Below, one piece after another: positions 41,897-49,955 of a stretch of 64,000 bases of DNA. Numbering within the stretch: the first letter of the stretch is position 1; every line of letters starts with the position of its first letter. A program made the position numbers and the translations under genes. The notes beneath the pieces are model-generated. The model ran no database searches. It was given only the letters and a program-made list of their open reading frames with translations, and was not told where the DNA came from. Source of the stretch: a virus; IMG/VR virus record IMGVR_UViG_3300027126_000006; one strand, given 5' to 3'.

Positions 41897-42472
41897 TTAC
41901 GTCAGTTTTGCGCGTAATCTTGAGTGTGATGGTAGAGCAGACTTCAGAAACTCCATCTGATCAGCAAGGATCTTCCTGTTGCACATAATCAACCCCTCTT
42001 CACGACATGGAATGTATGGAAGATAGAGAAGAGACATTCCACACTCTTCAAGAAGGCGATCATCCTTCTTGTTGTTGCAGCGTCTACATGAGGTAACACA
42101 ATTCATCCAGGTATGACCACCTCCACGTGACTTTGGAGTGATGTGGTCATTAGTAAGATCACGGTACTCACACTCTTCACCACAGTAAGCACAAATGTTC
42201 AGATCTCGGCCGAACAATGTACGGTTGGTCAGCATCAGGGGCTTTCGTTTTGGATGGTGGGTCCCTCTAACAGCTATGATCGATGAGAATGAAACTCGAG
42301 ATCTGTTTCCAGATAGTTTGTTCTCACCGCCGTGCTTGGTCCACGACCAGTCCCCTGTTTCCCATGCTACAACGTCTTTGACTTTATATGTTACAGCATC
42401 CTGCCAGGTCGACCAGTGTGTCGGCGTTCCGTGTTCGTTTAGTGTAAGTATCAATGGGGTCATTTGAATCAC
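41897..42472 (-). CDS. HNH endonuclease (McrA-like)
   Basis: LFGRDLNICAYCG, DHITPKSRGG..TWMNCVTSCRRCNNKK. Confidence 0.9.
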   Translation of the reverse strand: MIQMTPLILTLNEHGTPTHWSTWQDAVTYKVKDVVAWETGDWSWTKHGGENKLSGNRSRVSFSSIIAVRGTHHPKRKPLMLTNRTLFGRDLNICAYCGEECEYRDLTNDHITPKSRGGGHTWMNCVTSCRRCNNKKDDRLLEECGMSLLYLPYIPCREEGLIMCNRKILADQMEFLKSALPSHSRLRAKLT

Positions 42473-42483
42473 TAACTCATGTT

Positions 42484-42822
42484 TGTGGGGGTATTGGATA
42501 ACAAGGAACCCCCGAAACCCCGCTTAGCCGATCAAGCAGCTAAGGCAAATACCTCATCGTTGGCATTTGTGGTTATTGCTTCTACGACCGGGTAATCCCA
42601 ATCCTAACGACTTTCGCATTGCCGAACTGTCCACTCTGTTACTCATTGCCCTGTCGAACCTATTTCGCCCCCATCAAAAGTAATCTAGTTTGGATTCGAA
42701 CCTTGTCCATGTATTGTCTACCTGCACGTCCCACCGTACTGGCCAGATTACTTTTGGTGGAGGCGGCGAGGCACTGCCCCCCGCGTCCAGAACACTTTTC
42801 TCTTTGCTTCATACAGTCATTC
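42484..42822 (-). ncRNA. ssrA: circularly permuted (two-piece) tmRNA; tag peptide ANDEVFALAA
   Basis: acceptor piece ends CGCCTCCACCA at 42755; coding piece starts GGGGGCGAAATAGGTTCGAC at 42672; G3:U70 pair; tag ORF 42564-42532; outer ends approximate. Confidence 0.92.
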
Positions 42823-43293
42823 TTATAATATCTCAAACCTCAAATTAGCGTGGTCTGGATATTGTACTGCCACTTCTCCTTCAGGACATTTATAATTGAT
42901 ATGCCCCAAAAGAGTTGCTGTTCCTTTTGCTATCATACTACGGTGATCTTTATCAATAGTAAAAGTGTATGCAAAGGTGTCAACTCTATGATTAGCTGGC
43001 CCAGAAAACTTCGTGACACTGGGTGTAGCTGGGTGAGCGTGATACTTGCTATCTTTTACTTCAATCGCGAATCCTGTCACATCACAATCATTTCTTAGTT
43101 TTTCTCGAGCTACTACTACATCAAACGTACCATCAACTGGTCCACTTGATATACGAAAATGTTCAGGGTGCCACTTTAAAATTTCTTTCGATGCTATCTG
43201 CTTCCATACTTCAAAACCGCCACCTAACATTGCAAATGTCGCTGCGATAACACCCAAGACTTTCTTCAAGCCTTCGATGTCTAGGGAAAGCAT
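42823..43293 (-). CDS. membrane-anchored hypothetical protein (probably late)
   Basis: N-terminal TM; ACTAAATA late-like motif near 43341. Confidence 0.6.
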   Translation of the reverse strand: MLSLDIEGLKKVLGVIAATFAMLGGGFEVWKQIASKEILKWHPEHFRISSGPVDGTFDVVVAREKLRNDCDVTGFAIEVKDSKYHAHPATPSVTKFSGPANHRVDTFAYTFTIDKDHRSMIAKGTATLLGHINYKCPEGEVAVQYPDHANLRFEIL

Positions 43294-46206: not shown

Positions 46207-46260
46207 ATGCTTCAGTAAAAGTTATATATGGGTGCAGAGATATAACTTTTACTGAAGCAT
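46207..46260. repeat. perfect 21-bp inverted repeat in the 3' trailer of the unusual tRNA-Ile
   Basis: atgcttcagtaaaagttatat-N12-atataacttttactgaagcat. Confidence 0.9.
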
Positions 46261-46264
46261 GGGG

Positions 46265-46357
46265 TGGTGCCCCTGGTTGGAATCGAACCAACGACCTGCC
46301 GCTTATCTGGCGCTGACGGGGTATAAATCCGCTGCTCTACCGCTGAGCTACAGGGGC
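46265..46357 (-). tRNA. atypical tRNA-Ile(UAU) with a 23-nt extra arm carrying a second GAU anticodon-like loop
   Basis: GCCCCTG/CAGGGGC-ACCA, normal D and T arms, anticodon loop TTTATAC, extra CGC-CAGATAA-GCG-GC-AGGTC. Confidence 0.85.
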
Positions 46358-47236: not shown

Positions 47237-47944
47237 TTACTTCTTTAGTTGACTATCAATCCACTTTTGGGCTTCGGGTGTGTGATCTTTCGATGATACA
47301 ACCTTGCCGAAATGCTTGTGAATCTTATCCAAGCGGTCGAGATGTTTCTTTCTCTCTTCAGGTGTTGCCTTTTGCATGTCGATTGAGTTGTCCACACTGT
47401 GGAAGTGGCTCCCGAACATATCCTTATAATGATCCTTTGATTTGTGAACATTTGTCCACTTTTCTTGTCTGACCTCTTCTGGCACCTCGCGGCCGCCTAA
47501 CTGGCCACGCATTACGTTTCGTTTTTTTGATGTCTCATTATCGGTGTGAACGAAGACCATGTGAGTCTGGTATCCCATCGACTCGAGGTGGTCTTTCATT
47601 GCTTTGATCTTGTGATGGTCGTCGCCGGTACCGTTAATGATTATACCATTCCTACCATGCTCCGAAAGCTTCTTTTTGAGCTCCGCAGTATGCTTTGCTT
47701 TAACGCGAATTACATCTCTCTTAGATTGTTCATGCTCTGGCATCTTAGGATCTAGGCCGTGCTTCTTCATTAGATGTTCAAGAGGAACATCAGAGTTGAT
47801 TTCCCGTAGACCATGTCCTGCTAATGTCTTATGCATTACATAATCTTTGCCTGAACCAGGTGATCCGGCCATGAATACGGCTCGGAAGATCCCTTTGTCG
47901 TGAACTCCCTCTTGAATAACTAAGTACTGTTTAAAGTTTAACAT
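47237..47944 (-). CDS. zeta-toxin-like P-loop kinase (true start MLNFKQYL; ORF track extension through tRNAs is spurious)
   Basis: AVFMAGSPGSGKDYV, IIINGTG, MVFVHTD.ETSKKRN..R and REVPE. Confidence 0.8.
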   Translation of the reverse strand: MLNFKQYLVIQEGVHDKGIFRAVFMAGSPGSGKDYVMHKTLAGHGLREINSDVPLEHLMKKHGLDPKMPEHEQSKRDVIRVKAKHTAELKKKLSEHGRNGIIINGTGDDHHKIKAMKDHLESMGYQTHMVFVHTDNETSKKRNVMRGQLGGREVPEEVRQEKWTNVHKSKDHYKDMFGSHFHSVDNSIDMQKATPEERKKHLDRLDKIHKHFGKVVSSKDHTPEAQKWIDSQLKK

Positions 47945-47982: not shown

Positions 47983-48058
47983 TGGCTCCCCGACGTGGAC
48001 TTGAACCACGGACCCAAGCATTAACAGTGCTTTGCTCTACCGACTGAGCTATCGAGGA
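47983..48058 (-). tRNA. tRNA-Asn(GUU)
   Basis: TCCTCGA/TCGGGGA-GCCA, loop CTGTTAA. Confidence 0.95.
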
Positions 48059-48064
48059 ATTGTA

Positions 48065-48139
48065 TGGTGGACCGGCGGAGGATCGAACTCCGACTAAAGG
48101 CTTGCAAAGCCCCTGTGCTCCCATTATCACTACCAGCCC
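48065..48139 (-). tRNA. tRNA-Ala(UGC)
   Basis: GGGCTGG/CCGGTCC with G3:U70, A73, loop TTTGCAA. Confidence 0.9.
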
Positions 48140-48230
48140 ATATTGAAACACACTGGTACTTCCCTTCTCAGGGGCAGGAAGTTTATGGCTGTTGCCCCAC
48201 TCCAATACCAACCAATGTGTTTTAAAATGG
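48138..48230 (-). ncRNA. stem-clamped structured RNA cassette D (between tRNA-Gly and tRNA-Ala)
   Basis: CCATTTTAAAACACATT...AGTGTGTTTCAATATGG enclosing an H-type pseudoknot (GGGGCA/TGCCCC, ACTTCC/GGAAGT). Confidence 0.7.
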
Positions 48231-48301
48231 AGCGGGATAGGAGAATCGAACTCCTTTAGCCAGCTTGGAAGGCTGGAACTCAACCAATGAGCCAATCCCG
48301 C
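48228..48301 (-). tRNA. tRNA-Gly(UCC)
   Basis: GCGGGAT/ATCCCGC-TCCA, loop CTTCCAA. Confidence 0.95.
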
Positions 48302-48498
48302 AAGGTGCTTCCTCTCTGCGGCGGTAATTATAGTGCATCGAACCTTTGGGATTCAAGAGATACACCCTCCACCCGCTTCCCGACCAGAAAGGATTATCGC
48401 ATTGCCAGCGCTAGTTCGGTTAGACTAGAACCACCCGTGCCTATCACAGCACTTCTCATCTTGCGGGTCACAATAGCAGTTGATTAGACTGCACGTTC
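48302..48498 (-). ncRNA. putative structured ncRNA between tRNA-Tyr and tRNA-Gly
   Basis: GC-rich, no credible ORF; helices GTGCT/GGCAC, CTAGT/ACTAG, GTGTATC/GATGCAC, GCGG/CCGC. Confidence 0.55.
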
Positions 48499-48586
48499 TG
48501 GTGGGTGTGGATGGATTTGAACCACCAGCGTTTCTTATGTCACGGATTTACAGTCCGCTGCCTTCAACCGTTCGGCACACACACCC
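48499..48586 (-). tRNA. tRNA-Tyr(GUA)
   Basis: GGGTGTG/CACACCC-ACCA, loop CTGTAAA, long variable arm. Confidence 0.92.
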
Positions 48587-48596
48587 TAAAACTTAA

Positions 48597-48731
48597 TTAT
48601 ACAAGTTCGTAGTCCTCTTTGCCTACACCACATTCCGGACAACTAAAGTAGTCGGGGAGTTCCTCCCACTTACCTTCAGTTTCCTCATCATGTACATGAC
48701 CACAAACAATACAAACATGATCTTGTTTCAT
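48597..48731 (-). CDS. rubredoxin (44 aa; not in ORF track)
   Basis: MKQDHVCIVCGHVHDE...WEELPDYFSCPECGVGKEDY. Confidence 0.9.
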   Translation of the reverse strand: MKQDHVCIVCGHVHDEETEGKWEELPDYFSCPECGVGKEDYELV

Positions 48732-49177
48732 AGACCCTCCAACACTTGCTTATATGCATTTGCATGACGCTCTTCAACTTTCTTCAAAGCATTGAAACGC
48801 TTCTCAGCTTTATTCAAGACATCCATAAACTGCGCTGCGTGTTCCTTGCTTTCTTGAATCTGTTCTTTTGCAATTTGTGCTGCATGATGAATACCTTCAG
48901 TTTGAGCGATTGCTAGGAACTGAGGATACATTTCAGTATACTCGTATGTTTCACCTGCAATTGCCTTTTCCAAGCATTCCTTTGTTGAAGGTTTGCCAAT
49001 CAGCAATTCTAGGTGACCCCATGCATGCTTGATCTCTTGATCAGCAGTGTGCTCAAAATGTTTAGCAACATCTTCGTATCCCTCTTCCCTTGCAATCTGC
49101 GCAAAGTATCGATACTTAATATGTGCCATACTTTCGCCCGCGAGGGCGCTTTCCAAATTCTTAAGTGTAACAGACAT
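48728..49177 (-). CDS. rubrerythrin
   Basis: TLKNLESALAGESMA..KY.YFA..AR.EG, E..HA, GETYEYTEMYP and VEERHA. Confidence 0.92.
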   Translation of the reverse strand: MSVTLKNLESALAGESMAHIKYRYFAQIAREEGYEDVAKHFEHTADQEIKHAWGHLELLIGKPSTKECLEKAIAGETYEYTEMYPQFLAIAQTEGIHHAAQIAKEQIQESKEHAAQFMDVLNKAEKRFNALKKVEERHANAYKQVLEGL

Positions 49178-49198
49178 ATCTTTCCTTTTATTAAACAA

Positions 49199-49261
49199 CC
49201 ATATTGAAGCACACTAAGCCACGCTCTGAACCTGGACTCTTAGTAATGTGCTTCAATATGG
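49199..49261 (-). ncRNA. stem-clamped RNA cassette C
   Basis: CCATATTGAAGCACATT-N29-AGTGTGCTTCAATATGG. Confidence 0.72.
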
Positions 49262-49430
49262 TTATCCACTCCCTACTGTGGACTCCCATAGTCTTTCTGC
49301 TCCCGGACGACGATCCGATCCCGCCTTTGAGTGACCAGTCTACTGCCTCCGAGTTTGACAGTAGAGCATTTAGCGCCGCAGTGTGCTGCTGGGTCCTAGG
49401 GAATTGGACTAACAAGCAGGGCGGGTCAAT
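49262..49430 (-). ncRNA. putative multi-helix ncRNA with kissing loops
   Basis: CCCGCC/GGCGGG, GTCC/GGAC, TCTACTGTC/GGCAGTAGA, TCCAC/GTGGA; loops TCCCTA and TAGGGA are complementary. Confidence 0.6.
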
Positions 49431-49512
49431 TTCTTAAAAATAAGGGGCACCTCACATGGTTGTTTAAGAGTAGGCGCATCCTTTCGGCACTCGCACACTC
49501 CCCCATCTAAAA

Positions 49513-49633
49513 CCATATTGAAACACACTGTACTATCTAGATGGGTCAGTAGCTGTATCGGCCGATTATCTACTATCACCACCCTACGCTCCCTTGGGCC
49601 TTCGGGAATGGCTTACAATGTGCTTCAATATGA
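49513..49633 (-). ncRNA. stem-clamped structured RNA cassette B
   Basis: CATATTGAAGCACATT...AGTGTGTTTCAATATG enclosing TTCCC/GGGAG and GGGT..TAGTAG/CTACTG..ACCC helices. Confidence 0.7.
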
Positions 49634-49662
49634 GAACAAAATGTTGTTCAAATATTGCTAGT

Positions 49663-49690
49663 TTTTAAAGAGCGTTGCTGATCTCTCAGC
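49663..49690 (-). promoter_or_regulatory. rrn-like antitermination leader: boxB-like hairpin plus boxA
   Basis: GCTGA-GAGA-TCAGC then CGCTCTTTAAAA (rrn boxA is TGCTCTTTAACA), just after the promoter. Confidence 0.7.
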
Positions 49691-49699
49691 GTTGAGAAC

Positions 49700-49728
49700 A
49701 TTATACCAGAGGTCTGATTTAATGTCAA
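49700..49728 (-). promoter_or_regulatory. promoter TTGACA-N17-TATAAT for the RNA operon
   Basis: consensus hexamers. Confidence 0.85.
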
Positions 49729-49834
49729 CCATATTGAAGCACACTGACGCGGCTCTACACAGCAAACTAGGGGGCGCTCCTAGTCACCGTCCCTGCAACC
49801 GCTGAAACAGGTGGGACAATGTGCTTCAATATGG
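49729..49834 (-). ncRNA. stem-clamped structured RNA cassette A (3' trailer of tRNA-Thr)
   Basis: CCATATTGAAGCACATT...AGTGTGCTTCAATATGG; interior GTCC/GGAC, ACTAGG/CCTAGT and pseudoknot GCGGTT/AGCCGC. Confidence 0.72.
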
Positions 49835-49907
49835 TGCCCCTGGACGGACTCGAACCGCCAACCTACTGATTACAAATCAGTTGCGCTACCAATTGCGCTA
49901 CAGGGGC
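49832..49907 (-). tRNA. tRNA-Thr(UGU)
   Basis: GCCCCTG/CAGGGGC-ACCA, loop TTTGTAA. Confidence 0.95.
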
Positions 49908-49926: not shown

Positions 49927-49955
49927 ATTATATATCAGTACAGTTTTATAGTCAA
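49927..49955 (-). promoter_or_regulatory. promoter TTGACT-N17-TATAAT for tRNA-Thr
   Basis: hexamers with 17-nt spacer. Confidence 0.8.

Follow-up and report, generated by a model that had tools for sequence, protein, structure and literature searches.

The transfer RNA (tRNA) clusters of phages are usually read as codon-supply devices. The cluster of T4 is co-transcribed with two small RNAs that are not tRNAs, species 1 and species 2, the first of which is reportedly cut by ribonuclease III (RNase III) in vitro. Long stalks that release RNAs from polycistronic transcripts are the other familiar setting of RNase III, and in T7 several of its sites in one genome share a consensus. At the DNA level, plastic regions of T4-like genomes carry short conserved motifs, the PeSLs, which are promoter-plus-terminator composites flanking protein-coding open reading frames, and insertions, deletions and replacements occur there by recombination (PMC2839356, PMC4122927). 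Here we explore a stretch of 64,000 nucleotides (the window) of IMG/VR virus record IMGVR_UViG_3300027126_000006, from an uncultivated T4-like river phage, whose tRNA array holds four elements that share one closing helix, hereafter the clamp, around mutually unrelated interiors, hereafter the cargos.

We describe the structure of these elements, the strand-specific selection that acts on their RNA, their link to tRNA ends, the conservation of their cargos and their exchange as cassettes. The clamp family is a large RNA family, so far found in phages only, for which we found no description.

Methods

The window is part of an 82-kb IMG/VR virus record that is judged about half complete. Transfer RNA genes were called by ARAGORN, and Rfam was searched using gathering and E-value thresholds. 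Clamp homologues were collected by an IMG/VR scan with one arm, which returned at least 120 viral stretches; family-wide counts given below are counts among the matches listed. Within these, pairs and interiors were tallied over 256 unique elements and flanking bases over 246. The orientation of an element was taken from the strand of its neighbouring tRNAs, a criterion that is independent of pairing. Individual loci and contigs are designated by L numbers where they have to be told apart.

Results

The RNA-gene island lies on the minus strand, from 49960 to 47980 (Table 1). A first-pass annotation, made from the letters of the window, had placed four cassettes here, and all four are present at its coordinates on the minus strand, with a common 17-bp clamp, CCAUAUUGAARCACAUU / AGUGUGYUUCAAUAUGG, around interiors that are unrelated to each other. 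With at most three mismatches the arm motif is found nine times in the window against 0.28 expected, a number reached by none of 100 shuffles; eight of these matches make up the paired arms of the elements. Folding of each element compared with shuffles gave z scores from -3.1 to -7.3, with one long terminal helix and a structured interior, in agreement with the folded interiors that had been predicted. Position 16 of the clamp is U.G in all four elements and position 11 varies between G-C, G.U and A-U; these are the shared wobble and the variable pair that the annotation had noticed. Its claim that all four carry the same clamp holds for the shared arms and needs correction in two elements: element 4 is unpaired at positions 5 (U.U) and 8 (A.C) of its 5' arm, and element 2 starts with UCA. 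The proposed fusion to tRNA ends is borne out by ARAGORN, which puts the 3' ends of tRNA-Thr and tRNA-Gly at 49832 and 48228, the CCA of both being clamp positions 1-3, and the start of tRNA-Ala at 48139, its G1G2 being the last two clamp bases of element 4.

Table 1. Features of the RNA-gene island, in the direction of its minus strand (positions of the window)
Feature	Position	Strand	Remarks
Sigma-70-type promoter, 11/12 consensus positions	49927..49955	-	Upstream of tRNA-Thr
tRNA-Thr (UGU)	49832..49907	-	CCA (49834-49832) is the first 3 nt of clamp element 1
Clamp element 1	49729..49834	-	Arms 49834-49818 and 49745-49729; 72-nt cargo 49817-49746
Perfect sigma-70-type promoter, 12/12 with TG extension	49700..49728	-	Begins right after element 1
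Clamp element 2	49513..49633	-	87-nt cargo; no adjoining tRNA
Non-coding RNA modules closed by other stems, about 250 nt	49262..49512	-	Between elements 2 and 3
Clamp element 3	49199..49261	-	29-nt cargo; at mosaic boundary
Rubrerythrin (48728-49177) and rubredoxin (48597-48731)	48597..49177	-	Genes embedded in the RNA operon
tRNA-Tyr (GUA)	48499..48586	-	
Unclamped non-coding RNA region, 197 nt	48302..48498	-	Promoter-like site 48356-48327
tRNA-Gly (UCC)	48228..48301	-	CCA opens clamp element 4
Clamp element 4	48138..48230	-	59-nt cargo with H-type pseudoknot
tRNA-Ala (UGC, G3:U70)	48065..48139	-	G1G2 close element 4
tRNA-Asn (GUU)	47983..48058	-	Final RNA gene of the block

That RNA pairing is under selection, not a DNA inverted repeat, had been suggested from the four window elements and is now seen across the family. 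Read in the sense of the tRNAs, position 16 is U.G in 200 of the 256 unique elements and position 11 is G.U in 86, with a further 17 to 35 wobbles at each of positions 2, 12, 13 and 14, whereas A.C and C.A pairs, which are what wobbles of the other strand amount to, are rare except for one variant at position 8. Since G.U is common and A.C rare on the tRNA strand, selection concerns the pairing of RNA. Full Watson-Crick exchanges are found at positions 6, 7, 8, 12 and 14, and position 18, just inside the conserved sequence, is paired in about 79% of elements by many different pairs. On the outer side, the bases before and after the element are A and U in 157 of 246 cases and G and U in another 33, so that the helix normally takes in the discriminator base of the tRNA. 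Contiguous pairing extends over a median of 19 pairs, with 80% of helices in the range 17-21. Hence what is selected, on the tRNA strand, is a helix of RNA whose length is closely constrained.

Positions 3-5, 9-10, 15 and 17 are almost invariant in sequence, beyond what pairing asks for. A clamp that serves as docking site for a sequence-specific RNA-binding protein of host or phage, with the cargo as effector module in the manner of Ro and the Y RNAs, would be expected to show such positions, and one of the cargo families described below is tRNA-like in a way reminiscent of YrlA. We nevertheless think this quite unlikely, as five clamp-bearing genomes contain no TROVE/Ro gene, neither the clamps nor the tRNA-like cargo has a YrlA or Y-RNA match in Rfam, and the clamp sequence lacks a bulged-C helix of the kind that belongs to Y-RNA anatomy. 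There is also no conserved neighbouring gene, the commonest neighbouring protein family being present in 26 of 121 loci. The Rfam scan of the window gave one YrlA match, which is sub-threshold and lies on two tRNAs.

The link to tRNA ends is exact in many members of the family. At least 280 clamp elements occur in 118 loci, among 1516 tRNA genes; at least 90 of them overlap the 3' end of a tRNA by exactly 3 nt, the CCA, and at least 29 share 2 nt with the 5' end of the tRNA that follows. Even the elements out of contact with any tRNA, which make up about half, keep the CCA...UGG base, and the arrays also contain a few less common families of stems that likewise start with CCAU and end with AUGG. 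Approximately 1400 spacers separate tRNAs on the same strand; none of the 669 that measure 30 nt or less has a clamp, clamps being confined to spacers longer than 60 nt, and no clamp interior is shorter than 23 nt. The clamp goes with the cargo, not with tRNA processing as such. The tRNAs directly before clamps (L008-L127) include 24 Glu, 19 Lys and 19 Leu isotypes, whereas Met, Ser, Asp, Cys, Trp and His tRNAs, though common in the arrays, never directly precede a clamp among the matches listed. This isotype bias may merely reflect shared ancestry of the loci.

The perfect promoter that directly follows element 1, separated from element 2 by a short leader, resembles the terminator/promoter composites of T4-type PeSLs and could mean that clamps are intrinsic terminators or attenuators between transcription units. 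That is highly improbable for the family: no U-tract follows the clamps and a minus-strand terminator scan found no terminator here, a promoter comes after only 7 of the 246 elements, and many elements sit between co-oriented tRNAs and overlap them.

No match was obtained for the two arms with a gap of 27-57 nt in 185,579 prokaryote (bacterial and archaeal) genomes. All four complete clamp-bearing genomes (172-400 kb) encode a Gp23-type (T4-type) capsid protein, and psbA is absent from these four and from the record studied here. BLAST against cultured phages, T4 included, returned tRNA similarity only, with no match for element 3. A pattern search of five cultured relatives yielded a divergent copy in Synechococcus phage BUCT-ZZ01 only. 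This copy, at ON615601.1 117245-117371, has a perfect stem of 21 bp that departs from the consensus by three compensated changes; it encloses 85 nt and adjoins a permuted transfer-messenger RNA (tmRNA). The coding sequence annotated there as 'hypothetical protein' (L149 3664-3858; ON615601.1 117163-117357) covers this clamp element and the start of the tmRNA, and probably represents mis-annotated RNA genes. In Rfam the clamps and cargos remained unmatched, both in the window, where only tRNAs and a permuted tmRNA were detected, and in 13 clamp-rich loci, where only tRNAs and one group I intron were; the intron (53 bits) is located in a tRNA array (L038 13185-13378, minus strand) on a contig that bears seven clamp elements. 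The motif string occurs in no paper, and keyword searches gave no description of such cassettes; the earlier remark that this is no recognised family is upheld to the extent of Rfam and the literature searched.

The 256 unique interiors form 174 sequence clusters. Whether interior structure is conserved across phages was a check put forward with the first-pass annotation, and several cargos do keep theirs by compensatory changes. In one cargo family both partners have changed at 13 pairs; another folds as a tRNA-like four-way junction that combines a canonical T-arm and a D-like hairpin with a covarying stem of 7 bp. As for the window itself, the cargo of element 2 has a homologue in L061 in which the fold is kept via one compensatory pair, and that of element 3 is nearly invariant in eight different genomic contexts. 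Exact-word scans with the cargos of elements 1 and 2 gave no matches. The cargo of element 4 recurs inside at least four clamp variants in other phages, with loops that vary and pseudoknot stems that do not; the search pattern fixed most of these stems, hence this is conservation and not covariation.

Two H-type pseudoknots had been proposed, of which one stands. In element 4 two interleaved Watson-Crick helices of 6 bp each, found in only 1 of 1000 shuffles, make a credible H-type pseudoknot. The one proposed for element 1 (4 and 6 bp, with G.U) arises in 978 of 1000 shuffles, which is no better than chance and therefore no evidence. A conserved pseudoknot such as that of element 4 is what one would look for if cargos were anti-defence decoys that, for example, mimic the pseudoknotted antitoxins of type III systems, possibly circularised after excision. 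The prevalence of Glu, Lys and Leu among preceding tRNAs could be added, tRNA-Lys being a known target of anticodon nucleases, with the proviso on ancestry already made. Such a role is very unlikely all the same: up to E=5 Rfam returned no antitoxin RNA, ToxI-like or other, tandem direct repeats are lacking, no sign of an RNA ligase or RtcB was met with, though no search was aimed at these, and the RNA contigs contain no circular junction, which they could show only unreliably. Antisense targets of the four cargos in the 82-kb record did not rise above chance. Circularisation, guides and antitoxin mimicry, all offered by the annotation, are thus unsupported. Its broader picture is right in outline: a modular system in which one clamp, linked to the ends of tRNAs, can take one structured payload in place of another. 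Release by tRNA processing and/or an RNase III-like cut, which it also proposed, is plausible, and the helix length of 19-20 bp agrees with it.

Comparison of related loci reveals cassette exchange in which mosaic boundaries fall at the arms. Unrelated cargos lie within identical arms and near-identical flanks in L102/L094, L009/L015 and L059, L081/L065, and L050/L019, and a short AT-rich spacer takes the place of a relative's cassette in L008 versus L084 and L084 versus L034. L051 and the window share 94% identity across the module upstream of element 3 (49262..49512) and the 5' arm of that element; beyond this L051 has another cargo and then, after the same 3' arm, a downstream flank unrelated to that of the window. 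In co-occurring strains, known from RNA-library contigs, the CCA of tRNA-Thr is followed by a ribosome-binding site and start codon without element 1, and relatives found through the upstream gene of 222 residues have no clamps at the corresponding place. Since near-identical flanks go with a different cargo or none, the elements are exchangeable cassettes.

The same presence/absence and replacement polymorphism would be produced by selfish or neutral DNA cassettes, passengers that spread via their arms, keep the clamp since folded-out inserts are tolerated, and bring cargo of no use to the phage. The low copy number, with only one to three canonical clamps per complete genome, and orphan cargo such as that of element 1 suit such passengers well, and they too would be expected to show the RNA-strand asymmetry. 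We consider them unlikely on account of the cargos, several families of which keep their folds via compensatory changes while some are near-invariant across eight contexts. Moreover, the elements lack target-site duplications of 3 bp or more (at k=3, 6 of 246 elements against 3.0 in permutations; at k=4, 1; at k=5, 0), which argues against a transposon-type element and settles in the negative the suggested check for miniature inverted-repeat transposable elements (MITEs). Nor is a transposase or recombinase a consistent neighbour, as the neighbouring families counted above indicate.

Several other features of the region deserve mention. Four riverine metatranscriptomes hold it as assembled contigs, in which starts, ends, strand and level are unreadable and an uncovered stretch around elements 1-2 is not interpretable. 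Positions 49300-49432 are found in all four RNA libraries in short contigs whose depth is well above that of the flanks (for example 1276 versus 170). The modules of 49262-49512, to which these positions belong, are joined directly to a tRNA ending in ACCA in a co-occurring strain, and their first hairpin recurs in L111, downstream of an element 3-type cassette. The region 48302-48498, in the gap between tRNA-Tyr and tRNA-Gly, has counterparts, 73-86% identical, in no fewer than 17 further loci with clamps; devoid of a clamp and of any Rfam match, and with its promoter-like site in the 3' part, it looks like another widespread unnamed phage RNA. A rubrerythrin homologue is present in at least 11 clamp-bearing loci.

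Directly after tRNA-Asn the minus strand encodes a P-loop kinase (47237-47944, N-terminus MLNFKQYL...) with Pfam domains Zeta_toxin and AAA_33 and a weak match to a polynucleotide-kinase PHROG. Further along the same strand, a perfect 21-bp hairpin with a 12-nt loop (46207-46260) starts 4 nt past the CCA of a 93-nt tRNA-Ile (46265-46357); it belongs to a sequence family other than the clamp and has no U-tract. The permuted two-piece tmRNA of the window (42484-42876; Rfam tmRNA_permuted, 114 bits), which ARAGORN did not call, adjoins an HNH endonuclease gene (41897-42472), the pair spanning 41897-42876 on the minus strand.

Discussion

The explanation that we put forward, with confidence and doubt in about equal measure, is that of clamp-stem cassettes in the tRNA/small-RNA operon of T4-like phages, in which the clamp would provide insulation, a site for an RNase cut and handles for recombination. 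The operon would be transcribed from sigma-70-type promoters, and each inserted RNA would be closed by a conserved helix of about 19-20 bp, whose usual starting point is the discriminator base and CCA of the tRNA before it and which can run up to and including G1G2 of the tRNA after it. This helix would fold the cargo clear of the tRNAs and bring the flanking ends as close as an ordinary short spacer does. The clamp might then be cut internally by an endonuclease specific for double strands, most likely RNase III of the host. Upstream, this would leave a tRNA with a short single-stranded 3' tail, to be trimmed to the CCA by exonucleases; downstream, it would leave a tRNA whose short single-stranded 5' leader, with U directly before G1, could be removed by RNase P. 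The third product would be the cargo RNA with a short stem as its cap. In the DNA, the near-invariant arms could act as short homology handles through which cargo is gained, lost and exchanged when T4-like phages co-infect a cell. What we infer from the arrangement is the identity of the cutting enzyme, that cargo is released, and whatever function a cargo may have; as to the enzyme, our doubts about RNase III itself slightly outweigh our confidence in it.

A number of results weigh against this explanation. With one to three clamps in a complete genome, the clamp can be no general processing device. The conservation of its 17-bp sequence far exceeds the needs of pairing or any known preference of RNase III, and this near-invariance points to an additional sequence-specific reader or to recent horizontal spread, for instance by way of the arms. 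Cleavage of the clamp by RNase III is purely conjectural. No Ribonucleas_3_3 domain was found in this record or in the four complete clamp-bearing phages; the RNase III domain search matched 8 of 14 control genomes, and bacteria commonly possess RNase III. Element 1, finally, has an orphan cargo, for which no relative was found.

A bolder version, possible but rather doubtful in our opinion, would see in the clamp a dual-purpose 'RNA integron' of aquatic T4-like phages, a standard stalk for the excision and stabilisation of RNA, which would make a discrete small RNA of whatever sequence it encloses, produced together with the phage tRNAs, and whose invariant DNA arms would at the same time allow phages to trade, by short-homology recombination, in a common pool of functional small RNAs numbering in the hundreds, among them aptamers, mimics of tRNAs and decoys directed at host defence or RNases.

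If the cassettes are expressed as proposed, the tRNA clusters of many uncultivated T4-like phages would, besides tRNAs, express a large exchangeable repertoire of small RNAs that is absent from databases. If the clamp is a defined processing or stabilising module, it would explain how foreign RNAs can be inserted harmlessly between tRNAs, it would mark hundreds of candidate functional RNAs for study, and it might offer a natural scaffold for the expression of designed RNAs. The copy in BUCT-ZZ01, whose host Synechococcus elongatus PCC 7942 is tractable, makes the question accessible to experiment.

Among described systems, RNase III stalks, such as the flanks of 16S/23S ribosomal RNA and the early R sites of T7, likewise form a long helix from the two sides of an RNA that is to be freed from a longer, polycistronic precursor, and their length of about two helical turns is matched by the uninterrupted clamp with its median of 19 pairs. 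Unlike these stalks, the clamp is near-invariant in sequence across more than 100 phage contigs, starts exactly on the tRNA discriminator and CCA, and encloses interchangeable small cargos. T4 species 1 and 2 (rnaC, rnaD) are likewise small non-tRNA RNAs co-transcribed with a T4-type tRNA cluster; they differ from the cargos in having no sequence similarity to them and in being two fixed RNAs without a shared clamp and swappable interiors.

Bacterial Y RNAs (YrlA, bound by Ro/Rsr) have in common with the clamp elements a conserved terminal stem made of the 5' and 3' ends and a variable, sometimes tRNA-like module. In contrast to YrlA, the clamp has another stem sequence, comes without a Ro gene and is embedded in tRNA precursors. 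MITEs share terminal inverted repeats of about 17 bp and presence/absence polymorphism, but the clamp elements make no target-site duplication, their interiors are mutually unrelated and their wobble asymmetry indicates RNA selection on one strand. Type III antitoxins of the ToxI kind are set apart by their direct-repeat array, of which there is none here, by the lack of a match in Rfam, and by the neighbours, which in this case are rubrerythrin, rubredoxin and a P-loop kinase.

PeSL-mediated modular shuffling is the nearest described parallel at the DNA level. Like PeSLs, the clamp arms are a conserved motif found at the edges of the indels and replacements by which related T4-type phages differ. 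The PeSL layout of promoter plus terminator is approached by element 1 alone, with promoters as rare and U-tract terminators as absent as noted above, and unlike PeSLs the arms are inverted, pair as RNA and enclose the unit that is swapped. The clamp family is not categorically new: it is kin to processing stalks, to the stable RNAs of T4 and to PeSL-like shuffling.

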